This document shows, in pieces, positions 10,528 to 54,914 of a stretch of DNA of 64,000 nt. Every line of letters starts with the position of its first letter. Within the stretch, counting starts at the first letter, position 1. This DNA is from a virus, in the IMG/VR virus record IMGVR_UViG_3300013117_000027; one strand, written 5' to 3'. A model generated the notes under the pieces. The model was not told where the DNA came from. It searched no databases and saw nothing but the letters and a program-made list of their open reading frames with translations. Made by a program: the position numbers and the translations under genes.

Positions 10528-10537
10528 GGAGATTAAG

Positions 10538-11797: not shown

Positions 11798-11806
11798 GGA
11801 GTATAA

Positions 11807-36098: not shown

Positions 36099-36127
36099 TT
36101 GACTTTTTTATGCTAATGTGGTATATT
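36099..36127 (+). promoter_or_regulatory. Sigma70-type promoter with TGCNAAT spacer element
   Basis: TTGACT-tttttaTGCTAATgtgg-TATATT, upstream of primase-helicase. Confidence 0.8.
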
Positions 36128-39100: not shown

Positions 39101-39575
39101 GAAAGTGTTCTTACTAGATAACTTTCACAAACTTAGGATGGAGATAAGAGGTCAGACAAGAAAGAGCGACGCTATCAGTGATACGTCTCAACAGATTAAA
39201 GAGATTACTCAGTTAAATGACATACATATAATGTCTACAGTAGAGCTTAGAAAGCTTCAGACTAATACTGATAGACCTACAAGGAATGATATGCAAGGTA
39301 GTGCTAAGCTAGACTACGATGCAGATGTTATAGGACTTGTTCACAATGATATGCAGGTGAATAGGAATACAAGACTTGTTCACTACCAAGATGTTCACGG
39401 AAAATCGAGAGCGATGCCATGGATAGAGTTATCAATAGATAAGAACAAGATAAACGGTAAGGACTCACAGATAGTGTATAAGTACAATAAGCACAACATG
39501 CAGTTCTCCGAAGGTAGTACTAAAGACTTTTATAAGTTAAAAGATCAGATGAAACAACGTAACATAAACTTCTAA
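36156..39575 (+). CDS. DnaG-type primase / DnaB-type helicase fusion, intein-containing
   Basis: Zn finger (CCIHPDH..FHCF), TOPRIM (VEGYLD, CLDADKGG, DPD), Walker A GRPSAGK/T, helicase motifs LLDNFH, DMQGSAKLDYDAD, KNK. Confidence 0.92.
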   Translation: MNYQEVIKELHGKLEDYLKSQGVEITSNGFFCCIHPDHPDRYPSASLNYGNELKGKVFHCFSGRSHDGNIFTAAHWLEGLPLQGHDFWEHTMVELCKRYNIDYEPLEVDEGTRRQYQAYKATRDAAKIIHNMIYDGDDLKDHVGIRHLLERGVTRESIEKWGIGVLTSFKDYKHGIQQLGHNDENFLYSKDLMNKNLFNRDSFIIPIHDHSSRVVGFVTRNCRINPNDHVTRKYINTINTDIYEKGSILFGYHRIKNMSGPLYIVEGYLDAIMLEQAGLQKVVAIGATVLTNHHITETLFNDQTDIILCLDADKGGEDGVKLALERMACYRKFNVTIIDLPRDYDPDTYVREFGIEAFQALEKLSPFAWSLKHSEYSDDMTIVAEKMIPIIAAEESSITRLRMIRDLSNYTAIPELDIRRDVDALVSKEDDKYLQGIRDINQYAGAQLSRRKVSDTKSILRDALNKVEILDEKHNSVKDMQNEYMNKLQHLDNKLQEGDFKYGLLCPKHKGIETTLDGIPYWTCMTLFGGRPSAGKSLRPGTQVLMYNGNIKKIEDVKVGDQLMGPDSNPRNVLALGTGEEEMYDIIPKRGMKWGCNEPHILSLRMSSDNGDVYKKDDIINLPIKDYMCKNTKFKHHAKQWRTGWELPTKRIPYDAYYIGSWLGDGSKDSAEITTGDPEYVESYYKAFANKFGFRMSKYHQERNTYVYRMCKTSGKTNPLLNYLRDKCLVNNEKRIPKEYLHNSRTIRLELLAGLIDTDGYLVRKDSGTYEITTKYARLRDDILYLGNSLGFLSTYSDKKVTIKEGDVRTYYRIHISGNIREVPVKIERKKSITSNRRTNHQNVGFDIKHTGKGKYYGVVLDNDHLFLLADGTVTHNTAFMTDLSLDIVEANDDAAIFYMSIDDNMDLLTTKMLAVRSGLSTTEIKGYKDLRGEDRDSYHEAMQFLKNNADRFIIADAIQGNSVDALENHVRWFCREFKDQKKVFLLDNFHKLRMEIRGQTRKSDAISDTSQQIKEITQLNDIHIMSTVELRKLQTNTDRPTRNDMQGSAKLDYDADVIGLVHNDMQVNRNTRLVHYQDVHGKSRAMPWIELSIDKNKINGKDSQIVYKYNKHNMQFSEGSTKDFYKLKDQMKQRNINF
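37764..38786 (+). mobile_element. Intein (341 aa, LAGLIDADG) in the helicase Walker A motif
   Basis: GK|SLRPGTQV...LLAGLIDTDG...VTHN|T. Confidence 0.92.
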
Positions 39576-40243
39576 TGCCATATAATCAAATAAAATGTGA
39601 GACATATTGTAATAGAGCATTCGGTTGCTCTTTTTACAAGAAAGGAAATAACTATGATAAGTATATTGGGAATGGGCTTAAGAGCATTCTTATTGAATAT
39701 AAGTCAGATCGCGAAGGTGGTAACGACAGCAGTCTCTTTGATATTCTTAGTAGACAATATAAGCCACGGTACTTTGCTAAGATAGCATACAAAGAAGATA
39801 GAAAGAGAATAGAGTCTGTGTTCATTGATTGTATCAAGAACCTAGACCAGTTCTTCTCCAAGTATGAAGTGTCAGATATCTCTGGCACTTACTTGTACAG
39901 AGGAAGGATCAGAGGACAGATAGGTGCACGAGCTATCATTAAAGGTAAGGAGTACAATGTAGACTTCTCTTATAGTGATACCAAGGAGACATTTTATAAC
40001 CTCTTCTACCATTCATTCAACTCGTACCTTTATAATGTTTGTAACAATACTGAGAATGACTTACTAGTGTATATGCCTCGTACGGATACATATTACTCTA
40101 TAAAGAATAAGAACTATACTATTAAGTATGGGTTCTTGCAAGGTACTATTCAACGCAAGACATATAGACCTGGGCACCAGTGCCTTACTTGTTCGGTAAG
40201 AGGCTGTACTCCACGTCTTATAACTAATATAGAAAGGATATAA
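39575..40243 (+). CDS. Degenerate Cas4/AddB-like PD-(D/E)XK-fold protein
   Basis: N-terminal YNQIKCETYCNRAF and C-terminal RPGHQCLTCSVRGC; catalytic motif not evident. Confidence 0.45.
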   Translation: MPYNQIKCETYCNRAFGCSFYKKGNNYDKYIGNGLKSILIEYKSDREGGNDSSLFDILSRQYKPRYFAKIAYKEDRKRIESVFIDCIKNLDQFFSKYEVSDISGTYLYRGRIRGQIGARAIIKGKEYNVDFSYSDTKETFYNLFYHSFNSYLYNVCNNTENDLLVYMPRTDTYYSIKNKNYTIKYGFLQGTIQRKTYRPGHQCLTCSVRGCTPRLITNIERI

Positions 40244-40750: not shown

Positions 40751-40779
40751 TTGACTTCTGTATGCGAATCAGGTATATT
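40751..40779 (+). promoter_or_regulatory. Sigma70-type promoter with TGCNAAT spacer element, heading the glycan operon
   Basis: TTGACT-tctgtaTGCGAATcagg-TATATT. Confidence 0.75.
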
Positions 40780-41059: not shown

Positions 41060-43681
41060 ATGAAGAAAAAACTACTAATAATAGCGGACAGTATCAAGCG
41101 ACAAACTGGCTATTCTACTGTCGCTACTAACATAATCAATAACATAGACCATTCGAAGTTTGAGGTAGCCCAACTAGGTCTTGCTGATATACCTGTTGAC
41201 TATACTAAGACTAAGTTACCAGTACATCACTACTCTGTGATGAAAGATCATTCTCAGTGTTGTAAACGTGGTCACTTAATAGAATACTATAATAAAGATA
41301 CAGGTGAGCTAACTAATATTGTTCCTAACCTTACTGTAGACAATCATCCACAACAAGGTATATGTCCAAGAGGAACTAATTTACCAGGAGATGTGTTCGC
41401 ACAAGAATCAGCATTCTTTGTTATACAACACTATAAACCTGATATAGTAATAGCTATCAATGATGTATGGGCGTTGTATCATTATAATTTTCTACGTAAC
41501 AGAAAAGACTTTGTGTATGTACCTTACCTAGCAGTCGATAGTGAGTGTTTTCCAATGCACATCCATGCTCAGAAACCAGGAATGCCACCTATAGATACTT
41601 TAAAGTTTCTTGGACTGAACGATGAGACTGTAGTATTTACCAACTTCGCTAAAAAAGAGGTAGATAAAACAGTAGAACTTGCTACAGACGGTGGAAAACT
41701 TGCTAAAGATATTAAGATTATACCTCATGGTGTTGATATTTCATCTTTTAAACCTCTTGATAACAAGAAAGAACTAAGGAAGAAATATTTTCAGATAGAA
41801 GATGATAGTGTATTCTTGATAGGATGTGTTCAACGTAATCAACCTAGAAAAAGAATGGATGCTATCTTTCAAACTTTAAAGATACTTAAAGATAAGTATG
41901 AAGAAAAAGGAAGAAAGATAATGGTTCACTTTCACTGCGCTATGAATGATAACCTCGGATGGGATCTTCCGCACTTAGGAAAAGTATACGGAGTACTAGA
42001 TTCGTGTGTGTTTGATAATAAGTTATCTCCAGGAATGGGTGTACCAGTTGATGTTCTAAACGAGATTATTAATTGTTATGATATGCACTTAACTTTAACA
42101 AATTCGGAAGGATGGTGTAGTTACGGTCATACCAATGTCTTAACGGAAAGTTGTATTAAAAGATTAGATGAGATAACTGATAATGATAAAGTTATTACTC
42201 ACACAGGTAAGATAAAGAAAGTTCTTAAGCCGTTATCTAGACATTATAGTGGTGATATGATAAAAATTAAATATACTGGTGCGACAAGAGAAGTGTCTTT
42301 CACGCCTAATCATAATGTGTTAGTTCGTAGAAATGATACTAATGCGTGGGTAAGATCTGATGAGTTAACTATATCAGATAGGTTATGTTTACCTATTCCT
42401 AAATTTGAAAAACAAGATTCAATATTACATATAAAAGATCTTATTCAAGGTATAAATGTAGTCAATGAAGATGATCAACTGTTAATATTGACTGATTATA
42501 ATAAGAAAGACGGAACATATGTATCACACATTAATAAAAAGACAGTTCCCATTAAAGCTGTATGGAACATAGATGAACAAATGGCCACACTATTTGGAAA
42601 CTTTATAGCAGAAGGATCAACTAATAGTAGTCAAATAACATTTTCTATTAATGCTCAAAGAGATAATATTATTAGAAAAAATGTTATAGACTTTGCAACA
42701 AAGTTTAAACTTAAGTATAATCAATATATCATGGAAAGAAACAGAGAAAATATATCTGTAAGTTCGACGATATTATCGCATATGTTTAAATCTTTTGGAC
42801 AAGGTGCTAAGAATAAAGTAATACCTCATGAAATATTTAATATAGTTTCAGGAAATAGTAAGTTAACCAAAGCGTTATTAAACGGATTAATAGAAGGCGA
42901 TGGATGTTTTAATACACAGAATGCTATTACTTATACAACTATATCAAAAACACTGGCATACCAAGTGAAGACTTTATTTCTTAGTCTTGGCATATTTGCG
43001 AGAATATATGAACACAAAGAACGAAAATCATTTGATGTTTGGGTGCAAGGTGGAAATAATATTAATGAAATGTCTAAATGGATAGATAAGATACCTAATA
43101 ACATAAATCTTCCACAACAAAAACGTAATATTCAAACAAAACAAGATAATGATTATTTCTATCCTAAGATTAAAGGAATCATAAAAGAAGAATATAACGG
43201 TGTAGTGTATAATATAAGTGTGGAAGACGATGAGTCATATATAACTGAAGGATTTGCTGTTCACAACTGTCTTCCTATCTTAGAGACAATGAGCGCAGGA
43301 ATACCTAATGTTATAACTGACTACTCAGCTCATGGAGACTGGGCATCTGGAACAGCATTAAAGGTAAAGCTAGCGGCTAAGATACATGAAGTTAAAACTA
43401 ACCACATCAAAGGTATAGCTGACATCAACGACGCAGCTAAAAATGTGTCACTACTATATAAGTCAAAGAAACTATTGAAAGATTATCAGAAGAGATCATT
43501 AAAGCTTGCTAACAAGTTAGAATGGTCAAAGGTTTGCACTCAATGGAACAAGCTTCTAGATGAACTAGACTTAAGTAAGTTAGAAGATGGAAGATATGAT
43601 CTTACAGTAATAGAACCTGCTAACGAAAGCATTATCCCTGATAACCCAGTAACAACACCTTTTACCCTAGTGGAGGTATAG
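41060..43681 (+). CDS. GT4-family (GT-B) glycosyltransferase, intein-containing
   Basis: TGYSTV, IIPHGVD, RNQPRKR; spliced motif EGWCLPILETMSAGIP. Confidence 0.9.
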   Translation: MKKKLLIIADSIKRQTGYSTVATNIINNIDHSKFEVAQLGLADIPVDYTKTKLPVHHYSVMKDHSQCCKRGHLIEYYNKDTGELTNIVPNLTVDNHPQQGICPRGTNLPGDVFAQESAFFVIQHYKPDIVIAINDVWALYHYNFLRNRKDFVYVPYLAVDSECFPMHIHAQKPGMPPIDTLKFLGLNDETVVFTNFAKKEVDKTVELATDGGKLAKDIKIIPHGVDISSFKPLDNKKELRKKYFQIEDDSVFLIGCVQRNQPRKRMDAIFQTLKILKDKYEEKGRKIMVHFHCAMNDNLGWDLPHLGKVYGVLDSCVFDNKLSPGMGVPVDVLNEIINCYDMHLTLTNSEGWCSYGHTNVLTESCIKRLDEITDNDKVITHTGKIKKVLKPLSRHYSGDMIKIKYTGATREVSFTPNHNVLVRRNDTNAWVRSDELTISDRLCLPIPKFEKQDSILHIKDLIQGINVVNEDDQLLILTDYNKKDGTYVSHINKKTVPIKAVWNIDEQMATLFGNFIAEGSTNSSQITFSINAQRDNIIRKNVIDFATKFKLKYNQYIMERNRENISVSSTILSHMFKSFGQGAKNKVIPHEIFNIVSGNSKLTKALLNGLIEGDGCFNTQNAITYTTISKTLAYQVKTLFLSLGIFARIYEHKERKSFDVWVQGGNNINEMSKWIDKIPNNINLPQQKRNIQTKQDNDYFYPKIKGIIKEEYNGVVYNISVEDDESYITEGFAVHNCLPILETMSAGIPNVITDYSAHGDWASGTALKVKLAAKIHEVKTNHIKGIADINDAAKNVSLLYKSKKLLKDYQKRSLKLANKLEWSKVCTQWNKLLDELDLSKLEDGRYDLTVIEPANESIIPDNPVTTPFTLVEV
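42116..43267 (+). mobile_element. Intein (384 aa) in a GT4 glycosyltransferase
   Basis: EGW|CSYGHTNV...TPNH...GNFIAEG...GLIEGDG...AVHN|CLP. Confidence 0.92.
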
Positions 43682-43682
43682 A

Positions 43683-43925
43683 ATGGTATTTCCTAAAGAA
43701 TGGAAGAACTCAACATCCGAAGAAGGTAAGTATACATTTGGTAATAATGACTCACAGATAGTAAACGTTAACGACCTTGAGATAGGAGATCTATTCTTCG
43801 CAACAGACGAAGACGGAAATCTTATCGAGGATGATGATGGTAATACATTGTTTAGACTAGACGGTGATATGGATAAAGATAGATGTGGAGATTACTTACC
43901 ATGTATTCCAGTAGGAAAGGTGTAA
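43683..43925 (+). CDS. Small acidic hypothetical protein
   Basis: GGAGG RBS; operon context. Confidence 0.5.
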   Translation: MVFPKEWKNSTSEEGKYTFGNNDSQIVNVNDLEIGDLFFATDEDGNLIEDDDGNTLFRLDGDMDKDRCGDYLPCIPVGKV

Positions 43926-43926
43926 T

Positions 43927-44226
43927 ATGAGCACACAAGATTTATATAACTATGTTGCTAAAATAGAAAAGATATCCCCACGAGACGGGGATATCATAGC
44001 ACTGAAACTTAATATAAGCGAGACACAAATGAGTGAAACACTTGTTCAAAGTATAGGAGAGCTTGCTGGTTTGCTAGAAGACTATGGTATTCAAAATCCT
44101 TTACTGGTGTTAGGAAAAGATTCTTCTATAGAATCTATAGACGATAAGACTTTAGCACACCTAGGACTTGCACGTATACCTAAGACAACAGAAACAGACT
44201 CAATCGTAGACGATTTATACCAATAG
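43927..44226 (+). CDS. Hypothetical protein
   Basis: AAGG RBS; operon context. Confidence 0.5.
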   Translation: MSTQDLYNYVAKIEKISPRDGDIIALKLNISETQMSETLVQSIGELAGLLEDYGIQNPLLVLGKDSSIESIDDKTLAHLGLARIPKTTETDSIVDDLYQ

Positions 44227-44235
44227 GATATATAG

Positions 44236-45372
44236 ATGAAGATACTTGTAAGAGGACCTTACTCACAATCAGGTTTCGGCGTTGCCTGTATAGGACTTAT
44301 CAAAGTCCTGTTAAACGCTGGTCACGACGTTCAGTTTATCCCACTTAATACTAACCCAGGACAACATAAGATAGGATTCTCTCAAGAGCTTGCTACACTT
44401 ATAGATAGTCTCGTGGTAGATGAGGACGCAAAGAAACATACTGAAGTAGGAATAGATGTAGGAAGTCTTATCTATGGGCTTTCTGTTCCGCCTTTAGAAG
44501 TTGATAAGAATATACTGTACTGCACAACAGAGACAACAGACATACACGAAGACTACGTTGCTATGATGAACGAAAAGTATGATGAAATATGGACAGCTAC
44601 TAATTTTAATAAGATAGGTTTCATGTCATCTGGCGTTAGTAATACTATTAAAGTACTACCTCACGTCATAGATACTGATCACTTCAATCCGGAAGCATTG
44701 CCACTGAACATAGCTAATAAAAGAGAGTTTAACTTTGTTGCTAACTTTGATCTATCATATAGAAAAGGATTACACTTACTACTCCCAGCATATACGGAAG
44801 TATTTGATGCGGATGATGATGTTGCGTTGATACTTAAGATTACTAACAATAACTTTAAGGATAGAAATGCTGCTGTTCAAAAACTGAATGAGTTATTCTT
44901 TATGATGGATATTAATAGTAAAAAACATGCACCTATACTGTTCATGTTTGATATGTTACCAGATAACTATCTACCAGGACTTTATACAACAGGTGATGTT
45001 TATGTGGCACCTAATCTAGGGGAAGGATTCGCACTTCCTATTGCTGAGGCAATGGCGTGTGGTATTCCACCTATTGTGACAAGATGTGGTGGACCATTAG
45101 ACTATGTTAATAGTAAGAGTGGATTCCTTGTATCATTAGATAAAGAGAAATCTACTATACCTATTCAAGATCAATCATTACTACAACGTGACCCTCGATA
45201 CAGAGGAAGAAGCATCTTTAACATAGACATAGAATCTTTAAAAGAGAAGCTAAAAGATGCACACTTAAACGCAACAGAGACAAAAGAAAAAGGATTAAAA
45301 GCTAGAGAGCGTGTGCTTTCAAAGTTATCCCTAGAAGCAGTCACTAAGAAACTAGAGAAGATACTATGTTAA
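44236..45372 (+). CDS. GT4-family glycosyltransferase (no intein)
   Basis: SGFGVA, ETT, YRKG, GEGFALPIAEAMACGIP. Confidence 0.9.
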   Translation: MKILVRGPYSQSGFGVACIGLIKVLLNAGHDVQFIPLNTNPGQHKIGFSQELATLIDSLVVDEDAKKHTEVGIDVGSLIYGLSVPPLEVDKNILYCTTETTDIHEDYVAMMNEKYDEIWTATNFNKIGFMSSGVSNTIKVLPHVIDTDHFNPEALPLNIANKREFNFVANFDLSYRKGLHLLLPAYTEVFDADDDVALILKITNNNFKDRNAAVQKLNELFFMMDINSKKHAPILFMFDMLPDNYLPGLYTTGDVYVAPNLGEGFALPIAEAMACGIPPIVTRCGGPLDYVNSKSGFLVSLDKEKSTIPIQDQSLLQRDPRYRGRSIFNIDIESLKEKLKDAHLNATETKEKGLKARERVLSKLSLEAVTKKLEKILC

Positions 45373-45809
45373 GACTTAACTTAGGATGTGGATCCGTCAA
45401 ACATGACGGGTTCACTAATGTAGATATACTAGACAATGATAATGTAGATATTGTTCATGATCTCAATCAGATACCATGGCCGTTCGAAGATGAATCTATA
45501 GAGGAGATAATAGCAGAGGATGTGTTAGAACATTTACAGGATACACCAGCTATTATGAATGAAATGTGGAGAATATTAGAAGACGGTGCGACAGCAACCA
45601 TTCAAGTTCCCGACGTAATAAGAAATCCTCAATCAGCATACACCGACCCAACACATATACGTTTCTTCACCGATAGAACATTTGATTATTGGGATGAGAA
45701 TACAGAGTTTGGTGAGAAGTATGGATACTATTATGATAATAAATACTCAATTATACATAAGTCATTCCCTTACGGTAATGTAAAAGTAGTGATGCAGAAG
45801 GTGACATAA
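45366..45809 (+). CDS. Class I SAM-dependent methyltransferase
   Basis: RLNLGCG, DIVHDL, VLEHL, DPTH. Confidence 0.85.
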   Translation: MLRLNLGCGSVKHDGFTNVDILDNDNVDIVHDLNQIPWPFEDESIEEIIAEDVLEHLQDTPAIMNEMWRILEDGATATIQVPDVIRNPQSAYTDPTHIRFFTDRTFDYWDENTEFGEKYGYYYDNKYSIIHKSFPYGNVKVVMQKVT

Positions 45810-46519
45810 TGAAAACTATTACACTACCAGTAGCTACAAGACCACACTATCTTAGACAAATGCTTGACACTCTTAAAGAGAATAACCTCGAAGGTTATAA
45901 GCTATACGTTAATGCAGAACCTAATCAAGCTGTTATAGATGTTATTAGATCTGTAGACTTTATACCTACTACTGTTATAGTTAATAGAGACAGACTAGGT
46001 GTAAGACAAAATCCTTACAACTGTATCCAACGAGCGTTTGATGATGGTAGTACGTTTAATGTACACTTAGAAGATGATATAATATTATCACCAGATACAT
46101 TACAGTTAGCTTCATGGTACTATAAAGAGTACAAAGATAAACCTTTGACTCATCTTAACTATGGTATGTTTAACTATAAAAGCAATCCGGATGAACCTGA
46201 TAAGATTCAAGTTATAGAAGGTAAGTTTATAGGACTAGGATGGTGTACTTTTAAGGAGTGTTGGAATAAATGGTATAAGCCTTACTGGTTTGACGATAAG
46301 ATTAACGCAGAGGTATGGTCACCACAGACTGTTGGATGGGATTGGTCTATAGCTGCCATAGCTAAGACAGATAACCTTACATCTCTACAACCTTTAACCT
46401 CTAGGACTAACCATATTGGAAGAGTAGGTGGTACTTATTGTGGAGCAGACTTTCACGATAAAACTTTTCCGCAGATAATTATTAACGACGAAGAAGTAGA
46501 CACATTCGAGGTAATATAA
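45809..46519 (+). CDS. GT-A fold glycosyltransferase
   Basis: TRPHYL, HLEDDII, GWDWS, SRTNHIG. Confidence 0.7.
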   Translation: MKTITLPVATRPHYLRQMLDTLKENNLEGYKLYVNAEPNQAVIDVIRSVDFIPTTVIVNRDRLGVRQNPYNCIQRAFDDGSTFNVHLEDDIILSPDTLQLASWYYKEYKDKPLTHLNYGMFNYKSNPDEPDKIQVIEGKFIGLGWCTFKECWNKWYKPYWFDDKINAEVWSPQTVGWDWSIAAIAKTDNLTSLQPLTSRTNHIGRVGGTYCGADFHDKTFPQIIINDEEVDTFEVI

Positions 46520-48594
46520 TGAAAGATAAGAAACTGCTTATTACTGGAGGCACAGGTTCCTTTGGGAACGCTGTGCTAGACTTGTTCTTGCCTACTGACA
46601 TAGGTGAGATAAGAATCTTCTCTAGAGATGAGAAGAAGCAACATGATCTTAGAATGAAGCATCAGAATGATAAGATAAAGTATGTCATAGGTGATGTAAG
46701 AGACTATCAAAGTGTTAACGCTGCTATGGTAGGAGTAGACTACGTGTTCAGTGCTGCTGCTTTAAAGCAAGTACCTTCGTGTGAGTTCCATCCTATAGAA
46801 GCGGTTAAGACTAACATTCTTGGCACAGAGAACGTTCTAAATGCTGCTGTTCATAACGGCGTGAAGAAGGTTGTTTGTTTATCAACAGATAAGGCATGTC
46901 TTGATTTTCATTCACCTATTGAATTAGACGATGGTACAACTGTTAAAATATCAGATATTGTTAGAGATAAAAAATGTGTCTCAGTAAAAACATTTGATGA
47001 AGATTCTAAAAAGTTTAAGATATCGGAGACAGTTGGATGGTATAAAACTAAACTTAATGGAAGAAAAATGATTTCTATTTCTTATGAAAATGGATTAGTC
47101 CATGGTAGATATCATCAGCGCGTTTTAGCTACAGAAGATCATGATATTTTAACAAGTAAAGGTTGGAAAAGTGCTGGAACTTTATCAAATAAAGATATGA
47201 TAGTTACTAACGAATATAAACCAAATGATAAACAAAAGTGTGTTCTTCTTGGGACTATTTTAGGAGATTCATCTTTAGTTAAATCTAATAGTAATAGAGC
47301 TTATCTGAAAATGGGACATGCTAAAGATCAACTACAGTGGTTAAGACTAAAAGCGGACGCTCTAGATATGAACTATAGAAAAGATACTGTTAATATAAAT
47401 AAAGATAATAGACAAGATTTTTACAATGTATATAGCAAAAGTAGCGCATATTTAACAGATATTTACGATGATATCTATATTAATAAAGTGAAAATTATTC
47501 CAAGAAAAATGTTTGCTGAATGTTTTAATATAGATAGTAAGCTATTATTATCTACATTATTACAAGATGATGGTTGTATTACACGAGATAACTTAATAAG
47601 ACTTGCTACACATAGTTTTACAAAAGATGATGTTGAATGGTTAACAAAATATTTAACAAAGAATGGATATGAATGTAGTCCGTATAAATGTGTTGTTAAT
47701 AATGAAAAATATAATACTGTTTATTATGAAACAAGATTTACAAGACGTGGATCTAATAAACTAATCAAAGATTTACGTGGATATTTTATATTAGACTATA
47801 AGATTAACTGTGTAGATTCATTTGATAAAACTATATGGAATATAAATAATGTTAAAGAAATATATTATGGTAAAGCTATTGTTAATAATCATAAATATAT
47901 ATCAAAAGATGTATATTGTTTAGATATTAAAGATACACATAACTTTATTGTTAATAATGTAGTTGTTCACAATTGTTATCCTATCAACGCTATGGGAATG
48001 TCTAAAGCTTTGATGGAAAAGGTATCTATAGCTAAGGCTAGAACTAACATAGATACTATTATTTGTAATACAAGATATGGTAATGTAATGGGAACTAGAG
48101 GATCTGTTCTTCCTGTGTTCATTGAACAGATAAAGAGCGGTAAACCTATAACTATCACTGATCCATTGATGACAAGGTTTATGATGTCACTACAAGAGGC
48201 TGTAGAGTTGGTACTGTATGCGTTTAACCACGGATTACAAGGAGATACCTTTGTACAAAAATCACCAGCTGCGACAATAGCAGACATAACTGTGGCCATG
48301 GCTGAGATATTTAATGTTAATCCTATGTACAAGGTTATAGGCACTAGACATGGTGAGAAAAAGCATGAAGTGTTAATAGGTAAGGAAGAGATTTTGGTAG
48401 CTTCAGACCGTGGGGCTTACTACAGTGTTCCTATGAACAATAAGTCTATTAACTACCACAACTACTGTGCAGGTGATGACAGACTTACTCAAAATGAATA
48501 CTACGGTTCAGATAACACTAACAGACTTAGTGTTAAAGAACTAGTGGAGTTACTTAGTAAACAAGACTTTGTTAAGGAGGCACTAAGTGCGTAA
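46519..48594 (+). CDS. fnlA: UDP-GlcNAc 4,6-dehydratase/5-epimerase (FnlA/WbjB/CapE type), intein-containing
   Basis: GGTGSFG, FSRDEKKQ, AALKQVPSCE, STDKA, AMGMSK (Met replaces the SDR Tyr, as in FnlA/CapE), TRYGNV; spliced length 332 aa. Confidence 0.9.
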   Translation: MKDKKLLITGGTGSFGNAVLDLFLPTDIGEIRIFSRDEKKQHDLRMKHQNDKIKYVIGDVRDYQSVNAAMVGVDYVFSAAALKQVPSCEFHPIEAVKTNILGTENVLNAAVHNGVKKVVCLSTDKACLDFHSPIELDDGTTVKISDIVRDKKCVSVKTFDEDSKKFKISETVGWYKTKLNGRKMISISYENGLVHGRYHQRVLATEDHDILTSKGWKSAGTLSNKDMIVTNEYKPNDKQKCVLLGTILGDSSLVKSNSNRAYLKMGHAKDQLQWLRLKADALDMNYRKDTVNINKDNRQDFYNVYSKSSAYLTDIYDDIYINKVKIIPRKMFAECFNIDSKLLLSTLLQDDGCITRDNLIRLATHSFTKDDVEWLTKYLTKNGYECSPYKCVVNNEKYNTVYYETRFTRRGSNKLIKDLRGYFILDYKINCVDSFDKTIWNINNVKEIYYGKAIVNNHKYISKDVYCLDIKDTHNFIVNNVVVHNCYPINAMGMSKALMEKVSIAKARTNIDTIICNTRYGNVMGTRGSVLPVFIEQIKSGKPITITDPLMTRFMMSLQEAVELVLYAFNHGLQGDTFVQKSPAATIADITVAMAEIFNVNPMYKVIGTRHGEKKHEVLIGKEEILVASDRGAYYSVPMNNKSINYHNYCAGDDRLTQNEYYGSDNTNRLSVKELVELLSKQDFVKEALSA
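46897..47973 (+). mobile_element. Intein (359 aa) in the FnlA-like dehydratase
   Basis: STDKA|CLDFHSPI...ATEDH...GTILGDSS...LQDDG...VVHN|CYPINAMG. Confidence 0.92.
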
Positions 48595-49693
48595 AGTAAT
48601 GACGGTTGTAGGAACGCGACCTGAGATCATTAAACTGGCTGAGGTTATTAAGAAGTTAGATGAACACTTTGAACATATCCTTGTCCACACTGGACAGAAC
48701 TATGACTATGAACTCAATGAAGTATTCTTTAAAGACTTAGGTATACGTGAACCAGATGTCTTTCTTGATGCTGCAAGAGATACAGCTATAAGAACTATTG
48801 GGAATATTATGATGGAGATAGAAGCTCAGTTTGAAGAACATAAACCTGATGCGTTACTTATATACGGTGATACCAATAGTTGCTTATGTGCATACGTAGC
48901 TAAGAGAATGAAGATACCTGTGTTTCATATGGAAGCTGGTAATCGCTGTTTTGATCAGAGAGTTCCAGAGGAACTTAATAGGAAGGTTATAGATCACATC
49001 AGTGACATAAATATGACTGTAAGTGAGCACGCTAGGCAGTACCTTATCCAAGAAGGTATACGTCCTGAGACAGTTATAAAGGTGGGTTCATCTATGAGAG
49101 AAGTAATGTCTAAGAATATGAAACTCTTAGACTTAAATAGTACACTAAGTGATAACAGCCTAATAGAAGGAAAGTACTTCCTTGTGTCTCTTCATAGAGA
49201 AGAGAACGTAGATAGTGATAACTTCGAGAAGACTATCGATGCTTTGAACGGACTAGCGGAAAAGTACAGTTATCCTATCATTGTTAGTACCCATCCTAGA
49301 ACTAGAGCAAGACTAGATAAGAGTGGGGTAAAGTGTAACGAACTTATAAACTTTAGTAAGCCTTTCGGATTTTATGCTTACCAAGAACTACAAATGAACG
49401 CAGCGTGCGTAATATCTGACAGTGGAACTATAACAGAAGAGTGTTCTTTACTGGAGTTCCCAGCGGTTACTATAAGAGAAGCACATGAAAGACCAGAAGG
49501 AATGGACAACGGAGTACTTATAATGTCTTCCCTTGATAAGGAAAGCTTATTAGACTCAGTTAAGATAGCAACGGAGATTCCTCAAGCGCAGGAATACGTA
49601 GATGATTACTTTGTAGATGACGTGTCTTGTAAGGTGGTAAAGATTATATCTAGTTACATAGATTATGTTAATAGAACAGTATGGAGGAAGTAG
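48587..49693 (+). CDS. fnlC: UDP-sugar 2-epimerase (FnlC/WbjD/QnlB type)
   Basis: VGTRPEIIK, HTGQNYDYELN, HMEAGNRCFD, SDSGTITEE, ERPEG. Confidence 0.88.
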   Translation: MRKVMTVVGTRPEIIKLAEVIKKLDEHFEHILVHTGQNYDYELNEVFFKDLGIREPDVFLDAARDTAIRTIGNIMMEIEAQFEEHKPDALLIYGDTNSCLCAYVAKRMKIPVFHMEAGNRCFDQRVPEELNRKVIDHISDINMTVSEHARQYLIQEGIRPETVIKVGSSMREVMSKNMKLLDLNSTLSDNSLIEGKYFLVSLHREENVDSDNFEKTIDALNGLAEKYSYPIIVSTHPRTRARLDKSGVKCNELINFSKPFGFYAYQELQMNAACVISDSGTITEECSLLEFPAVTIREAHERPEGMDNGVLIMSSLDKESLLDSVKIATEIPQAQEYVDDYFVDDVSCKVVKIISSYIDYVNRTVWRK

Positions 49694-50505
49694 TGAAAGT
49701 ATTAGTTTTCGGAGCAAAAGGTATGGCTGGTTATATGATATCTAAGTACCTTAGAAGTAGAGGTCATTATGTTGTTACAGTATCAAGAGACGACGATACA
49801 GACTATACGTTCAGTATAAGATATTCTAATATCTTAGCTCATCCTTTACCAGAGTCTATCATTCAGAAAGAAGAACCTGACGTGGTTATAAATGCTGTCG
49901 GACTACTTGTGCAAGGTTGTAAAGATGATATACTATCTGGTATCCTTGTCAATACAGCGTTTCCACACATGTTAGAATACTTATCTGGATTCTATAAGTT
50001 CAAACTTATACATATAAGTACTGACTGTGTATTCTCTGGTAAGGTAGGTAACTATAAAGAGACTGACCAAACAGATGGTGAGGATAACTATGCTAAGACT
50101 AAAGCGCTAGGAGAGGTTACTGGGGAACATTCTCTTACCTTAAGAACGTCTATCATAGGTCCAGAGTTAAAAGATGGTACAGGCCTATTACATTGGTTTC
50201 TAAAACAAGATGAATGTGAAGGATGGGTCAACGCTTTCTGGTCTGGAGTTACTACACTAGAGTTAGCTAAAGCTATAGATTTCTTTATGCAATCAGATAA
50301 GACCGGATTTTATCATCTTACTTCAGACGAAAAGATATCTAAGTACGACCTACTTAAGTTAATAGCAGAGGTGTACGGCAAAGATACAAAGATATCAAGA
50401 ATAGCGGCACCTAAGTTCTGCGATAAGTCATTGTTAGATACTATCGGGACTTATACGCCACCTAGTTACTATGATATGTTAACGGAGTTAAGAGACTATG
50501 AATAG
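49693..50505 (+). CDS. RmlD-like NDP-4-keto-6-deoxysugar reductase (QnlA/WbvR type)
   Basis: GAKGMAG, HISTDCVFSG, YAKTK, RTSIIGPE; about 270 aa with no cupin domain; GTG start after GGAGG. Confidence 0.8.
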   Translation: MKVLVFGAKGMAGYMISKYLRSRGHYVVTVSRDDDTDYTFSIRYSNILAHPLPESIIQKEEPDVVINAVGLLVQGCKDDILSGILVNTAFPHMLEYLSGFYKFKLIHISTDCVFSGKVGNYKETDQTDGEDNYAKTKALGEVTGEHSLTLRTSIIGPELKDGTGLLHWFLKQDECEGWVNAFWSGVTTLELAKAIDFFMQSDKTGFYHLTSDEKISKYDLLKLIAEVYGKDTKISRIAAPKFCDKSLLDTIGTYTPPSYYDMLTELRDYE

Positions 50506-50697
50506 AATAATAGGACTAACACATAACTATCTCCCTCAAAATGGTAGCCTTCTTTGTGGTGCTATGGAAATGAATACGATATACATAAAAGTTTATGGGG
50601 ACCAGAAGACTTTTTTGATTGGAAACAAATAACTGAAACATTATTCCCTGGTTCTAACCAATACTTTATAGGAGTATGGAATGCAACAAATACCTAA
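50498..50697 (+). pseudogene. Internally deleted methyltransferase-like remnant
   Basis: MNRIIGLTHNYLPQNGSLLCG in one frame, then YGNEYDIHKSLWGPEDFFDW... in another. Confidence 0.4.
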
Positions 50698-51511
50698 GAT
50701 TATGCACCTTTATTGGGGCAGGAACAAACCGCTCAGTTTTATGAGATACCTAACTCCTTACTCGTTTGCTAAATATAATTCTGATTGGACGATTAAGATA
50801 TATTCCCCCTTGGCCCCCGGCAAAGAACCCACATGGACTAACACAACAGAAAACAAAGCTGAGTTAGATGTTGAATGTTACTTTAATCGTCTTAAAGATA
50901 TATCTAATGTTGAGATGATAGAGATAGACTTCAAGAACGATACTAATGACGTCTTTAGGTCTGATAAACTCAGGTTAGAGTTGTTGTCCACTGAAGGTGG
51001 ACTATGGTCTGACTTCGACATTTTGTACTTCAAACCTATAACACAGATGTGTGTCATAGACGCTAGTACACAGATGTGTGTCATAGACGCTAGTACATAC
51101 ATGTCTTACAATAAATGGTCAAGAGATCCTAATGATTGGTACCACTCTATCGGATTCTTACTAGCTTCTGCTAACAATAAGACTTTTAAAAAGTTAAAAG
51201 ACAAAGTAGATGAATATTTCGATGAAACTAACTATCAATGTATAGGTAGTCACATGTATAATAAAGAATTACAAGAAGGTGAGTTCTTTAATATACCTTT
51301 CGAAACTGTGTATCCTGTTCCATGGAATGCTGTTGTTAAGTTCTACACTTCTCAAATGAGATTTAAGTTAGGAACAATAGGTATACATTGGTTCGCAGGA
51401 TCTTCATTCTCTCACTCTGTAGAAGAAATATTAACAGAAGATACAATAGACGAGTATATGTATCCTGATGCAACCTTTATCAAGATAGTGAAAAAAGTAT
51501 GTTCTCAATAA
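50681..51511 (+). CDS. DXD-motif glycosyltransferase (GT32-like)
   Basis: IPKIMHLYW, SDKLRLELLSTEGGLWSDFD, IHWF. Confidence 0.85.
   Translation: MQQIPKIMHLYWGRNKPLSFMRYLTPYSFAKYNSDWTIKIYSPLAPGKEPTWTNTTENKAELDVECYFNRLKDISNVEMIEIDFKNDTNDVFRSDKLRLELLSTEGGLWSDFDILYFKPITQMCVIDASTQMCVIDASTYMSYNKWSRDPNDWYHSIGFLLASANNKTFKKLKDKVDEYFDETNYQCIGSHMYNKELQEGEFFNIPFETVYPVPWNAVVKFYTSQMRFKLGTIGIHWFAGSSFSHSVEEILTEDTIDEYMYPDATFIKIVKKVCSQ
51041..51094 (+). repeat. 27-bp perfect in-frame tandem duplication
   Basis: (ACACAGATGTGTGTCATAGACGCTAGT)x2 encoding TQMCVIDAS twice. Confidence 0.95.
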
Positions 51512-52221
51512 TAATGCCTTACTACAACAGATTCAAACATCTTAGTAATACTTTAGTATCTTTTAAGGAACACTATAGTGACTTAGAATATGAGGTATTG
51601 ATAGTAGAAGACTTTAAAAATCAAATGGATAGTGTAGAACATATAAATCTACACTCTCTTATAGAAGAGTATGAAGATGACTGTAATATAAAAGTGATTT
51701 CTTACGATAAGAATCCGTGTTACAATCCTGCTGAGATGTTTAACATAGGAGTTGAAGAAGCAAAATATGATAGAATAGTACTAACTAATCCTGAATGTTT
51801 CCACGAAAGTAATATACTAAAAGGACTAGAGAGTTACTCAATGAGTGACTACATTGTATGTGCATGTGCTTCTGTTGTAAAACAGAATCAGGTCACTAGT
51901 ATAAAAGATTTTAAGTCAATGTTTCACATGTGGTACATTCATAGCCAACACTACCCAAGGAAGTTACACTTTTGTTCTTGTATATCTAAGGATAACTATA
52001 AAGCTATTGGAGGTTTTGATGAAGAATACCTCAAAGGGATAGCATACGAAGATGACGACTTCGCGTTAAAAGTAGAGCAGGGTAAGATTAACATAGTACA
52101 TGCCGATGAACTTATAGTTCTTCATCAAGATCATTCAAGACAGTATGGTAACAGTAACTATATGCAACTTCTTAATGTTAACAAAGCCTACTTTAACAAA
52201 AAATGGGGAAGAAATGATTAA
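51499..52221 (+). CDS. GT2-family glycosyltransferase with GT7C-like C-terminus
   Basis: FSIIMPYYNR, EVLIVED, FNIGV, IGGFDEEY..GIAYEDDDF. Confidence 0.85.
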   Translation: MFSIIMPYYNRFKHLSNTLVSFKEHYSDLEYEVLIVEDFKNQMDSVEHINLHSLIEEYEDDCNIKVISYDKNPCYNPAEMFNIGVEEAKYDRIVLTNPECFHESNILKGLESYSMSDYIVCACASVVKQNQVTSIKDFKSMFHMWYIHSQHYPRKLHFCSCISKDNYKAIGGFDEEYLKGIAYEDDDFALKVEQGKINIVHADELIVLHQDHSRQYGNSNYMQLLNVNKAYFNKKWGRND

Positions 52222-52417
52222 GACGTATACGTGTACAGGATGTAAGAAAGACAACGCTAAGGTATCTATAGATCAAGGTAGTACTGATAGCAAATATGGT
52301 ATACTAGGATTAGTAGACCTGTACGACGCCAGACTTACAAAAGATATGGTTGTTTGTAACAAGTGCAAAGAAGTTATTTATAAGTATGAAGATACAAGAC
52401 ATACAAAGGACAGATAA
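52214..52417 (+). CDS. Small zinc-finger-like protein
   Basis: CTGC...CNKC; start at ATG 52214 overlapping the previous gene end. Confidence 0.5.
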   Translation: MIKTYTCTGCKKDNAKVSIDQGSTDSKYGILGLVDLYDARLTKDMVVCNKCKEVIYKYEDTRHTKDR

Positions 52418-52542
52418 TGAAAGTTAAAGTTGGAGATAAAGTATACGATGCCAAGAAAGAACCTGTGATGGTTATCTTGGAAGGCAATGATAAAGAAAAT
52501 ATAGCTAAAGAGAATCTCGAGAAATCAGATAAATATTTATAA
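52417..52542 (+). CDS. Small hypothetical protein (41 aa, possibly truncated)
   Basis: TAATG coupled, AAGGA RBS; MKVKVGDKVYDAKKEPVMVIL... Confidence 0.4.
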   Translation: MKVKVGDKVYDAKKEPVMVILEGNDKENIAKENLEKSDKYL

Positions 52543-52553
52543 AGGAACAACAT

Positions 52554-54914
52554 ATGATAAACATATATGGTCCAGTTAATAACTTGGGTTATGGGATACA
52601 TAACTCGAATATGATCAAAGCGTTACAAGATAATAACGTTGACGTTAACTTGACCCAAATAGGACAAGTACAACAGTGTAACTATTATAAAGAGTATGTA
52701 ACAAAAGCACACAATAACTATAGATCATTTGATAAGAATAATCCTAGTTTGGTAATATTTCACGATGAATATTTACATCAATCTTGCGGTAATCCTATAA
52801 TAGCTTACTCTATATTTGAAACTACCAAACTTTCAGAAAGAGCATTGTATAATCTTAACAATGTTGCTGATAGGGTGTTTACTACTACCAAGGAACACAA
52901 AGAGATCCTAATAGATAACGGTGTGACAACACCTATCTTTGTGGTACCAGAAGGTGTAGATCCTGAGTTATATAATACATCAGGCAATAAGTATATAGAA
53001 ACAGGTAAGCCTACTTATATAACAGTAGGTAAGTGTGAAGAACGTAAAAATACTGACATGATCATACGATCATTCGTAGAGACAATGCAGTACAAAGAAT
53101 GTGCACTTATAGCTCATACTTATAATGTATTTACCACTAGATTTATGTGTGAAAAGTTTAACTTCGAAGCCCTCGGATTTAAACGCACAGAGAATGGTAA
53201 TTGGATGCTTTGGAGTAATGGTATATGTGACATATATTTTACCAAACCTATAAGCGATATCAAAAAGATGAAAAGTCTCTATCTCTCAGCCAATGTGGGC
53301 ATTGCTTATTCACGTGCCGAAGGATGGGATCTACCTTGTCATTTATCTGGTACTAAAATAATAACTAATACTGGAGTTAAGAATATAGAAGATGTTACAA
53401 CTAAAGACAAATTACTAACACACAAAGGTAACTTCAAAAATGTTCTTATACCTATGAAAAAGAAAAATAAACATGATATTTATAATATCAAATGTTTTGG
53501 AAATGTATCTACTATTAATGCAACACAAGATCATCCAATATATTGTATAAAGAAATCAAATATTGATAAATATAGAGATATGTATTATATTGAGCCTGAA
53601 TGGGTGAAAGCTAAAGATATAAGAAAAGGTGATGTTATTATTAAATCTATTCCAAAAGAAATAGATACAAATACTATAATAGATCTAACAATGTTAGATA
53701 AGAATCTTTGTTATAATAATGAACATGTGTGGTATAAAGAAAGTTATAATACATCTAATAACCAATCGTATACTTCTTTATCGTCTAAATATAATACAAC
53801 CAAAGGTATATTAGAGAAAGCTTTTAAACATATATGTTTAAAAACTAATCCTAAAAAAGGTTATGAAACAGAAAAGATTTATAATCTTCTTATAAAAGAT
53901 AAGGTACAACCAAAAGAAAATATTAAATTTAATAGATACATAGATATTAAAGATATATCAAAACTTATAGGTCTTTATATAGCAGAAGGATCAAAAGATA
54001 AATCTAAAATTGTATTTACTATACATGAGAAAGAAGAACAAGAATGTCTTTCTATGATAACAAAACAAAACTGTTTCCTCTCAGATGACAATAATATATG
54101 GACCAAAAAACACAAAGACTCCAAAGCAGTAGATATATGTATTAGTGGTAAGATACTAAGTATACTTATGTGTTCTTTATGTGGAGAAAATGCACATACT
54201 AAACGTATACCTTATCAGTTATTATATGGAGATATTAGTTCTTTAAAGAATCTTACTGATTGGGCAGTGTATGGTGATGGTTATATTAACAATAATATTG
54301 TATCATATACTACTGTATCTAAACAACTTCGCGATGAAATTACAATAGCATTTGAAAGATTCGGTTACATACCTAAAATATCATATGATAATAGAGGTGT
54401 ATATACTATATGGTATAATTCTAATATTAATAATATGTCTAAAAATATCAAATGTTGGTATCATAAGTATGGAATAGCTAAGCTTGTACATAGAGTTACT
54501 AAAAATAGTGAATATAATGGGTATGTCTATAACTTTTCAGTAGATACTGACAATTCTTATACATTATGTAATGGAACTACTCACAATTGTATGGAGTTAA
54601 TGGCGTGCGGTATACCTACTATCGCCTCTAACGTTATTGGACACTCAGAGTATCTCCCTGGCTCTCCTAAGATACAACAAGATCTTATAGTAGAACCTAT
54701 TGGTAAGGAACTTGCTCAAGATGGAGTGTGGTTCCATGGAGATAAAGGAGACTGGTACACTATGAATAAAGACGATCTTTCAGAAAAACTTGAAGAAACA
54801 TTCGATGATATAGAATTATACTCTGAGCCAAGTGTAGAATTATCAGAGTATTACCATACAAATTACAACTGGTCTCTAGCTGCATTAAAAATCAGAGAGA
54901 TATTGGAAGTGTAG
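52554..54914 (+). CDS. GT4-family glycosyltransferase, intein-containing
   Basis: LGYGIH, IFETT, VPEGVD, EERKN; spliced motif AEGWDLPCMELMACGIP. Confidence 0.9.
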   Translation: MINIYGPVNNLGYGIHNSNMIKALQDNNVDVNLTQIGQVQQCNYYKEYVTKAHNNYRSFDKNNPSLVIFHDEYLHQSCGNPIIAYSIFETTKLSERALYNLNNVADRVFTTTKEHKEILIDNGVTTPIFVVPEGVDPELYNTSGNKYIETGKPTYITVGKCEERKNTDMIIRSFVETMQYKECALIAHTYNVFTTRFMCEKFNFEALGFKRTENGNWMLWSNGICDIYFTKPISDIKKMKSLYLSANVGIAYSRAEGWDLPCHLSGTKIITNTGVKNIEDVTTKDKLLTHKGNFKNVLIPMKKKNKHDIYNIKCFGNVSTINATQDHPIYCIKKSNIDKYRDMYYIEPEWVKAKDIRKGDVIIKSIPKEIDTNTIIDLTMLDKNLCYNNEHVWYKESYNTSNNQSYTSLSSKYNTTKGILEKAFKHICLKTNPKKGYETEKIYNLLIKDKVQPKENIKFNRYIDIKDISKLIGLYIAEGSKDKSKIVFTIHEKEEQECLSMITKQNCFLSDDNNIWTKKHKDSKAVDICISGKILSILMCSLCGENAHTKRIPYQLLYGDISSLKNLTDWAVYGDGYINNNIVSYTTVSKQLRDEITIAFERFGYIPKISYDNRGVYTIWYNSNINNMSKNIKCWYHKYGIAKLVHRVTKNSEYNGYVYNFSVDTDNSYTLCNGTTHNCMELMACGIPTIASNVIGHSEYLPGSPKIQQDLIVEPIGKELAQDGVWFHGDKGDWYTMNKDDLSEKLEETFDDIELYSEPSVELSEYYHTNYNWSLAALKIREILEV
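53337..54587 (+). mobile_element. Intein (417 aa) in a GT4 glycosyltransferase
   Basis: EGWDLP|CHLSGTKI...TQDHP...GLYIAEG...YGDG...TTHN|CME. Confidence 0.92.

Follow-up and report, generated by a model that had tools for sequence, protein, structure and literature searches.

A tailed-phage glycan island with a conserved glycosyltransferase core, an exchangeable cassette for a predicted rare L-sugar, and three inteins

The stretch of DNA analysed here, referred to as the window, is 64,000 nucleotides of the IMG/VR virus record IMGVR_UViG_3300013117_000027 and has a G+C content of 34%. Its source is an uncultured large tailed phage. The subject of this study is a glycan locus at positions 41060 to 54914, in which all genes are co-oriented on the + strand and mostly overlap or abut. 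From left to right, the locus contains the glycosyltransferase (GT) gene GT4-1, two small acidic open reading frames (ORFs), GT4-2, a 147-amino-acid (aa) S-adenosylmethionine (SAM) methyltransferase, orf236, an FnlA-type enzyme, a 2-epimerase, a short reductase, a GT32-like and a GT2 transferase, a small ORF, and GT4-3. A preliminary description made from the sequence alone had listed the transferases, the methyltransferase, and the three sugar-nucleotide enzymes, and family searches together with the co-orientation bear the list out gene for gene. The reductase protein is present on five contigs, the longest of which is 140,858 bp. The window is about 45% of the approximately 141-kb contig, and the absence of export genes reported below is a statement about the window. 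The main features of the locus are given here by coordinates, strand, and description, with slashes marking the ends of an intein.

41060-43681, + strand, GT4-1, core transferase, 489 aa after splicing, PHROG 2170 glycosyltransferase with an intein
42116-43267, + strand, GT4-1 intein, 384 aa, LAGLIDADG_3, inside the EX7E motif (SEGW/C...HN/CLPILE)
44236-45372, + strand, GT4-2, core transferase with the EX7E motif intact (E263...E271), Glyco_trans_1_4 and Glycos_transf_1
45366-45809, + strand, compact class I SAM methyltransferase, 147 aa, Methyltransf_23/11, motif I LNLGCG
45809-46519, + strand, orf236, GT-A transferase of the GT13/GT16 type (GnT-I, POMGnT1, MGAT2) by family profile and AlphaFold (AF2) model
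46519-48594, + strand, FnlA-type UDP-N-acetylglucosamine (UDP-GlcNAc) 4,6-dehydratase/5-epimerase, 332 aa after splicing, TIGR04130 as best family, with an intein
46897-47973, + strand, FnlA intein, 359 aa, LAGLIDADG_2, inserted after STDKA
48587-49693, + strand, non-hydrolysing UDP-N-acetylhexosamine (UDP-HexNAc) 2-epimerase of the FnlC/WbvD type, wecB model
49681-50505, + strand, short RmlD-like 4-reductase of the WbvR/QnlA/Mg535 type, 274 aa, RmlD_sub_bind
50681-51511, + strand, GT32-like retaining GT-A transferase, Caps_synth above its cut-off and fold search
51499-52221, + strand, GT2 transferase with GT7-like features, family search
52554-54914, + strand, GT4-3, core transferase, 369 aa after splicing, weak GT4 matches, PHROG 2170, with an intein
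53337-54587, + strand, GT4-3 intein, 417 aa, LAGLIDADG_3, inside the EX7E motif (EGWDLP/C...HN/CMELM)

Relatives of the locus were collected by scanning IMG/VR and the JGI metagenomes with GT4-2, and all window genes were mapped onto them. The conserved order in the relatives is primase-helicase, orf222, orf84a, GT4-1, GT4-2, a gap, GT4-3, and orf94. The three GT4 genes are kept in both position and sequence (42-89% identity) in relatives with a G+C content of 27-37%. The gap between GT4-2 and GT4-3 differs from relative to relative. It is lacking in L030, L033, and L037 (the same contig as L003), where GT4-2 is directly followed by GT4-3. The gap of L001 is 5.2 kb in length and contains a GT-A homologue of orf236, three unknowns, a radical SAM enzyme, and a Cpn10-like gene, no remnant of which was found in the window. 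The gap of L032 contains a methyltransferase, DUF5672, radical SAM enzymes, and an orf236 homologue. The gap of L035 is at least 10 kb and contains a GnT-I-like GT-A, a GT9-like transferase, Glyco_trans_1_2, two CmcI-type O-methyltransferases, a B12-radical SAM enzyme, RmlC, RmlD, a short-chain dehydrogenase/reductase (SDR), and a GT2; it is a rhamnose-type cassette. L036 and L038 carry unrelated sequence after GT4-2. Because the fetched sequence of L032, L035, L036, and L038 ends before any GT4-3, the right-hand boundary of a gap with a cassette is seen in the window and in L001 only.

Since the gap differs between relatives, the genes for N-acetyl-L-quinovosamine (L-QuiNAc) in the window are one of several alternative cassettes occupying a fixed slot. 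New relative to the preliminary description is thus that the pathway sits in a swappable cassette within a conserved three-GT4 core. The rare-sugar route is textbook bacterial chemistry that is already known in one giant virus, and each enzyme is an unremarkable representative of a familiar family. What is new is where they are found, and chiefly how the locus is built: a tailed-phage glycan island with a conserved core, exchangeable rare-sugar cassettes, and three intein-gated enzymes.

The genes for the FnlA-type enzyme, the 2-epimerase, and the reductase overlap end to end. The spliced FnlA shares 59-63% identity with the FnlA proteins of E. coli and with S. aureus CapE. It keeps the STDKA motif and Met-x-x-x-Lys, the latter within a YPINAMGxSK stretch. 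The best PDB matches of its C-extein are A. baumannii WbjB 4j2o (9e-70) and CapE 3vvb (8.5e-67), in which this stretch is aligned, and the matches to Megavirus Mg534 (2.4e-20) and to the PseB type (2gn4) are far weaker. With the wecB model, the 2-epimerase reaches a score of 217.8, above the cut-off of 210.15. Its identity is 49-55% to the epimerases in the FnlC position of four E. coli O-antigen loci and to S. aureus CapG, 53-55% to the E. coli epimerases of both locus types, and about 27% to ordinary WecB. These identities place it in the FnlC/CapG subfamily. The reductase has the GxxGxxG glycines for NAD(P) binding, S113, and Y137-x3-K141, which are invariant in the alignment. It has no cupin or other extra domain, and in this it differs from the reductase of the pathway to UDP-N-acetyl-L-fucosamine (UDP-L-FucNAc), for which about 370 aa and a cupin are expected. 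FnlB and CapF are approximately 370 aa long and carry a C-terminal cupin domain.

Homologues of the reductase number in the thousands, are 270-290 aa long, and share 45-50% identity with it. Eighty bacterial and archaeal loci were fetched with an alignment of these homologues. The three genes occur within 6 kb of each other in 69 of the 80 loci, and 28 show the order found in the window, with an FnlA that is 53-65% identical. A second layout among these loci (L052-L131), found mainly in Bacillales (for example L058, L059, and L074), begins with the epimerase, followed by a dehydratase that shares only 37-47% identity with FnlA and by the reductase. Reference loci were taken from annotated E. 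coli genomes found with the DNA of the FnlA C-extein, and RmlD and S. aureus CapF were fetched as well. The E. coli O3 locus (L134) contains an FnlA-like gene and a 'dTDP-4-dehydrorhamnose reductase family protein' without an epimerase. Among E. coli O antigens, only O3 contains N-acetyl-L-rhamnosamine (L-RhaNAc) (PMC7685785). Two further E. coli loci (L136 and L138) have the order FnlA, reductase, epimerase, which is the layout expected for L-QuiNAc. In E. coli O145 and strain N3, FnlA and an epimerase accompany a reductase of about 370 aa, which carries the annotation WbjC in O145. By BLAST, the phage reductase is 35-40% identical to the reductases of O3, L136, and L138 and 26% identical to RmlD, and it has no match to FnlB/CapF (E. 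coli WbjC, S. aureus CapF) at E <= 1e-3.

A tree of the reductases was built, as had been proposed in the preliminary description; WbvR and Mg535 were not among its sequences. In it, the phage reductase and a metagenomic protein that is 60% identical to it (P0002) form a pair. The pair falls inside a clade of short reductases that are syntenic with FnlA, with a support of 94 in the Shimodaira-Hasegawa-like approximate likelihood ratio test (SH-aLRT). That clade, together with a megaphage reductase, groups with the reductases of E. coli O3 and L136/L138 (SH-aLRT 83). FnlB/CapF are on a branch of length 6.1 and RmlD is on long branches, so the phage protein stands with the short reductases, that of O3 included, and far from FnlB/CapF and RmlD. 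Because the reductase groups with those syntenic with FnlA and the epimerase and with that of O3, the reading in which UDP-L-RhaNAc is made and converted to UDP-L-QuiNAc is supported. The most likely products predicted from the sequences are therefore UDP-L-RhaNAc and, by 2-epimerisation, UDP-L-QuiNAc. The preliminary description had drawn the same sugars from the cupin-less reductase, a proposal with which tree, synteny, and BLAST agree.

Several points count against this assignment. The C-4 stereochemistry of the reductase is taken from relatives that are 35-40% identical to it. The nearest clade of reductases, with 30 entries, holds no enzyme tied to a known sugar. The tree comes from a quick search with SH-aLRT support only and has long outgroup branches. 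An alternative, which we consider improbable, is that the pathway ends in UDP-N-acetyl-L-pneumosamine (UDP-L-PneNAc)/UDP-L-FucNAc or another 6-deoxy-L-HexNAc, the short reductase having the stereochemistry of FnlB despite the lack of a cupin. FnlA and the epimerase are equally similar (53-63%) to E. coli loci of the FnlABC type and of the reductase type and therefore do not discriminate between the sugars, and the modest identity of the nearest sugar-tied reductases leaves room for such an outcome. Opposed to this are the similarity to FnlB/CapF, which is undetectable by BLAST, and the place of the phage protein among the short reductases joined by those of O3 and L136/L138, away from FnlB/CapF and RmlD. 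The size of the reductase and the gene set also fit WbvB/R/D and Mg534-536 (PMC9614988).

The locus can be compared with three known routes. The bacterial route to UDP-L-RhaNAc and UDP-L-QuiNAc is that of WbvB/WbvR/WbvD in Vibrio cholerae O37. The phage locus has the dehydratase, the short reductase, and the adjacent 2-epimerase of such a route, drawn from the same three enzyme families and with all catalytic motifs kept. In a comparison with the E. coli forms (O3 L134, L136, and L138) rather than with the V. cholerae proteins, identities are 59-61% for FnlA, 53-55% for the epimerase, and 35-40% for the reductase. Unlike the bacterial route, it is encoded by a tailed phage, has the order FnlA, epimerase, reductase, has an FnlA split by an intein, and has no Wzx, Wzy, WbuC, or priming transferase nearby. 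The UDP-L-FucNAc route (S. aureus CapE/F/G; E. coli O145 FnlA/WbjC(FnlB)/FnlC; L135 and L140) shares the families of its first and third enzymes with the phage at 60-62% and 49-55% identity. The middle enzyme differs, as the phage reductase is 274 aa long and unrelated to FnlB/CapF by BLAST.

The third route is that of Megavirus chilensis, in which Mg534, Mg535, and Mg536 (323, 270, and 370 aa) convert UDP-GlcNAc to UDP-L-RhaNAc and UDP-L-QuiNAc (PMC9614988). The comparison with Megavirus in the preliminary description is apt, as these proteins perform the same three steps. Megavirus fibrils carry L-RhaNAc, 4-O-methyl-L-RhaNAc, and L-QuiNAc (PMC9614988). The mg534-mg539 cluster is like the phage locus in that a virus-encoded three-step route is followed by transferases, and the gene clusters of Megavirinae are clade-specific (PMC9614988), much as the phage cassettes are. 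Unlike the phage, Megavirus is a eukaryotic giant virus, and its Mg534 has a Tyr-x3-Lys triad. The much weaker match of FnlA to Mg534 than to WbjB and CapE argues that the phage genes are of separate, bacterial-type origin.

The remainder of the cassette consists of three GT-A transferases and the methyltransferase. The protein of orf236 alone has no Pfam match. A profile of its family (39 homologues, all metagenomic) matches POMGnT1 (1.3e-18), MGAT2 (1.7e-10), and GnT-I (6e-10). Its AlphaFold model has a predicted local distance difference test score (pLDDT) of 97, and the nearest folds are GnT-I and POMGnT1 (TMq 0.76-0.78). Within the E88-D89-D90 motif, E88 and D90 are invariant in the 39-sequence alignment. 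Profile, model, and invariant residues together therefore identify orf236 as a GT13/GT16-like GT-A. The GT32-like protein has no PDB match by sequence. Its model (pLDDT 83.5) shows a retaining GT-A fold of the GT8/GT32/GT44 kind, and the fold search returned generic retaining GT-A structures at a TM-score of 0.45-0.55. Its homologues adjoin a pathway of the FnlA/epimerase/reductase type in L151, L142, L144, and L146. The GT2 is 40% identical to the GT2 of the L151 module described below. The 147-aa methyltransferase is probably a sugar O-methyltransferase and part of the variable cassette; homologues of it adjoin reductase cassettes in L144 and L221. For the GT4 enzymes, a literature search on a Pfam GT4-conflict lead gave no paper relevant to phage GT4.

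Three proteins of the locus are interrupted by inteins. Each intein has Cys1, a block B TxxH (TPNH, TEDH, and TQDH), a C-terminal His-Asn, and a Cys at +1, and all three have the features of class 1 inteins with a homing endonuclease. Pfam finds Intein_splicing in the GT4-1 and FnlA inteins, only a weak PT-HINT in the GT4-3 intein, and LAGLIDADG in all three. The insertion site in GT4-3 is three residues further on in EX7E than that in GT4-1. Intein-free alleles exist for both, SEGWGLPILE in GT4-1 of L029 and EGWDLPLMELM in GT4-3 of L001, and these fit the predicted splice junctions exactly. The inteins of GT4-1 and GT4-3 are 25% identical, and that of FnlA is unrelated to both by BLAST. In 5.8 billion proteins, the FnlA intein has only four other related clusters, all in Polysacc_synt_2 hosts, and the ESM Atlas contains a 60-member, mostly viral cluster of GT4 proteins with LAGLIDADG_3. 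As the inteins lie in active-site motifs of FnlA, GT4-1, and GT4-3, the three enzymes should work only after protein splicing. In L038 (7508-8619), GT4-1 is broken at another position, near residue 274, by approximately 1.1 kb that may be another mobile insertion.

The module is not confined to this phage. An alignment-based scan of IMG/VR found 92 contigs with a related reductase. Of these, 80 were examined, and the full set of three pathway genes is present in 13. Single-protein scans of IMG/VR with the reductase or the epimerase gave no matches. One of the contigs, L151 (IMGVR_UViG_3300014205_000181), is an unrelated viral contig of 144.5 kb and contains the pathway with GT32-like and GT2 transferases at 6715-15773. 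Its module consists of Anp1-like transferases, a methyltransferase, the reductase, FnlA, the epimerase, a GT32-like gene, a pyruvyl transferase, an FrhB-like gene, a second GT32-like gene, and a GT2. It is a second phage version of the L-QuiNAc-type module. The pyruvyl transferase recalls Megavirus mg538.

Searched by megablast against 50,697 phage records, the locus as a whole had 0 matches. When the epimerase and the reductase were compared with phage records by tblastn, no cultured phage turned out to carry the cassette. Matches of 49.5% to 'Staphylococcus phage SA ... Kay' were rejected, as they are S. aureus cap-operon DNA in unverified records. OR844989.1 and OR849864.1 (L140; UNVERIFIED_ORG) contain, on a 282-kb piece, ORFs that are colinear with and 49-60% identical to FnlA/FnlC. 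A CapF-sized ORF lies between them, which is the S. aureus capE-capF-capG layout, and these records look bacterial, not phage. The literature covered, which was limited, contained no report of a tailed phage with an FnlA-type route.

The following promoter feature lies upstream of GT4-1.

40751-40779, + strand, sigma-70-like promoter TTGACT, 17 nucleotides, TATATT, located 281 nucleotides upstream of the GT4-1 ATG (41060)

The motif TTGAC, 16 nucleotides, GGTATATT has four copies in the window (32998, 33879, 36099, and 40751), all on the + strand. They are confined to the recombination, replication, and glycan region, with none in the 5' virion block or on the - strand. A terminator-like hairpin immediately precedes the copy at 36099, and the primase-helicase gene follows it. 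A stricter promoter pattern has 2 matches where 0.11 are expected. L029 has an identical promoter site before GT4-1, and in L035 one promoter class precedes both the primase-helicase gene and GT4-1. That these two genes have a promoter class in common suggests, on the basis of pattern matching, that the glycan locus is expressed early or middle, together with the replication genes. A general terminator scan of the window was not above chance.

The membrane content of the window was assessed with a Kyte-Doolittle scan of all ORFs of at least 60 aa, which supplies the transmembrane prediction called for in the preliminary description. The proteins of the locus are soluble, and the sole hydrophobic segment of the locus is inside the GT4-3 intein. 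No multi-pass membrane protein was found among the real genes of the window, in keeping with the earlier statement that no flippase, polymerase, or membrane priming transferase is visible. Likewise, the membrane parts of O-antigen, capsule, or Gtr systems (priming transferase, Wzx, Wzy, ABC transporter, and GtrA/B/C) were not found in the window.

The proposal that we favour, by a modest degree, is a phage glycan island of two layers, driven by a promoter and building a glycan that is most likely attached to a virion protein. The first layer is the three soluble GT4 transferases that follow the primase-helicase gene and are common to the relatives. The second is the cassette between GT4-2 and GT4-3, which differs from phage to phage. 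The sequences themselves establish what each enzyme is, that the catalytic motifs are intact, how core and cassette are laid out, and that membrane segments are lacking; the use of the promoter, the assembly of the glycan, and its acceptor are proposals. In the window, the FnlA-type enzyme would convert host UDP-GlcNAc to a 4-keto-6-deoxy-L intermediate, the short RmlD-like reductase would turn this into UDP-L-RhaNAc, and the FnlC-type 2-epimerase would form UDP-L-QuiNAc. The three GT-A transferases (GT13/16-like, GT32-like, and GT2) and the small SAM methyltransferase would complete the cassette. Transcription would probably start from the sigma-70-like promoter of the replication-gene class. 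The enzymes would assemble an oligosaccharide in the cytoplasm. Its inner part would be conserved, and its outer part would vary and include L-QuiNAc, L-RhaNAc, or both, perhaps with O-methyl groups. The acceptor would be common to the whole phage family and most likely an exposed virion protein, which is the weakest step.

Virion proteins rank first as acceptors because the GT4 core is conserved across differing G+C contents, because some relatives share this core without having sugar-nucleotide genes, and because the outer cassette varies between them. In the tail region, five proteins in a row (6030-13902) contain 57 Ser-Gly pairs where about 20 are expected from composition, and the reverse pair Gly-Ser is not enriched in them. 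These proteins are a lead, as candidate acceptors and not more. A more specific version, in which the island determines a virion serotype, is held tentatively. The fixed GT4 core would make the inner glycan on exposed virion proteins, and the swappable cassette would diversify the outer sugars, with L-QuiNAc here, a methylated rhamnose-type sugar in L035, and a radical-SAM-modified one in L001 and L032.

A model for such a virion glycan exists. Mycobacteriophage virions are reportedly glycosylated by phage-encoded transferases, which Freeman et al. are said to have found in 2023. PMC12619734 places mycobacteriophage glycans on the C-termini of capsid and tail-tube subunits. Common to that case and to the phage locus are soluble phage transferases without export genes, the proposed model for glycans on exposed virion proteins. 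The phage locus differs from the mycobacteriophage case in having a full rare-sugar pathway and six transferases beside replication genes, and in being known from genes alone.

Other observations weigh against the favoured proposal. There is no direct link between the transferases and virion proteins. The locus adjoins replication genes, not head or tail genes, and has their promoter class, a neighbourhood that would also suit DNA or host targets. The promoter calls are pattern matches, and a general search for sigma-70 sites gave 79 where 85 would be expected by chance. Because 64 of about 141 kb are visible, genes for export or base hydroxymethylation are possible elsewhere. The preliminary description had argued from the lack of export genes that the acceptors are cytoplasmic (virion proteins or DNA) and that host serotype conversion is less likely. 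Its premise holds for the window; the argument itself is weaker than stated, because a soluble transferase from a phage can modify lipid-linked polymers of its host even when the phage encodes no export genes. Of the two acceptors it named, virion proteins are the most likely, and DNA lacks its defining partner genes both in the window and in the flanks of the relatives.

Remodelling of a host envelope polymer is accordingly a serious rival, since soluble transferases can use host lipid-linked intermediates, even if we regard it as rather unlikely. The enzymes would act in the cytoplasm on intermediates of lipopolysaccharide (LPS), capsule, or teichoic acid that the host exports, which could block superinfection or alter the cell surface during infection. 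All bacterial homologues of the pathway enzymes sit in surface-polysaccharide loci, the GT4, GT2, and GT32 families are typical of such loci, and a soluble transferase from a phage can do without phage-encoded export. TarP, encoded by a prophage, acts in this way, and its structure, 6h1j, is one of the GT-A fold matches of orf236. The early or middle promoter class would also fit, and the diversity of cassettes could mirror that of host sugars. Set against these points is the conservation of the three GT4 genes across relatives that probably have different hosts, as host acceptors vary. The window has no priming transferase, flippase, polymerase, or Gtr-type gene, and no integrase or lysogeny gene was found among the window ORFs scanned; a lytic phage would gain less from serotype conversion than a prophage.

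Hypermodification of phage DNA, in which the transferases would build the glycan on hydroxymethylated pyrimidines, is in our view very unlikely. The location directly downstream of the primase-helicase gene, with the same promoter class, speaks for it, as do the sequential transferases and sugar epimerases of known DNA-glycan clusters, which sit near helicases, polymerases, and methyltransferases (bioRxiv 10.1101/2023.12.21.572611). The phage locus is like those clusters in its sequential transferases, sugar epimerase, and replication-gene neighbourhood. It is unlike them in having far more transferases and in that a 5mYOX/ThyS homologue and a C5 methyltransferase are absent from the scanned window and the flanks of the relatives. 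A Pfam search of ORFs of at least 200 aa at 29-64 kb found no thymidylate-synthase-like hydroxymethylase, TET/JBP-type dioxygenase, or C5-cytosine methyltransferase, and these partner genes were also not found in the locus or among the scanned locus genes of L001, L032, and L035. The glycans reported on DNA are mono- to trisaccharides, for which six transferases plus a methyltransferase are too many, and five of the six transferases, in a locus of mostly acidic enzymes, are acidic (isoelectric points of 5.0-5.6).

A conserved core with an exchangeable cassette implies that these phages vary a glycan in much the way that bacteria vary their O antigens. If the island does set a virion serotype, tailed phages would have in it a counterpart both to the variation of bacterial O antigens and to the fibril glycans of Megavirinae, which are clade-specific. 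If the glycan is on virions, surface glycosylation of phages would extend well beyond the actinobacteriophages, and the locus would help in understanding how large phages without a cultured representative adjust their adsorption, stability, or recognition. As the cassette recurs in other large viral contigs, the question reaches beyond one genome. The enzymes would be a ready source of UDP-L-RhaNAc and UDP-L-QuiNAc, their predicted products, for glycobiology, and the locus offers a naturally occurring example of a single operon in which three sugar enzymes are gated by inteins.

The window around the locus begins with a long + strand block in the 5' part, whose few family matches are virion proteins. 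This is followed by a patatin-like gene (a phospholipase, 30631-31518), GIY-YIG endonucleases, the intein-bearing primase-helicase gene (36156-39575), and the glycan locus. A ClpP-like gene is located 3' of the locus, and the strand switches near 56.3 kb. A sigma-70 region-2 protein, which may be a phage sigma factor, is encoded at 57045-57893 on the - strand. No tRNA was found in the window with ARAGORN. Three further features belong to or adjoin the locus.

43683-44226, + strand, two small acidic ORFs of 80 and 99 aa, role unassigned, conserved in L001 and L029
52145-52417, + strand, small Cys-containing ORF, 90 aa as listed with a true start that is probably later, weak homologue in L001
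54966-55250, + strand, orf94, basic Cys-rich ORF of 94 aa, directly after GT4-3 in relatives

The product of orf94 may be a zinc-binding regulator. The ORF orf222 (39575-40243) follows the primase-helicase gene in all relatives and has no Pfam match. It has Cys clusters at both ends, C8/C12/C18 and a CxxCxxxxC near the C-terminus, that are reminiscent of iron-sulfur nucleases of the Cas4/RecB type. An assignment of orf222 as a dioxygenase was rejected, since this N- and C-terminal pattern, judged by eye, looks like that of a Cas4/RecB-type nuclease. The intein of the primase-helicase gene has a homing endonuclease (Hom_end_hint and Hom_end). It is absent in L001, L037, and L038 and present in L035 and L040.

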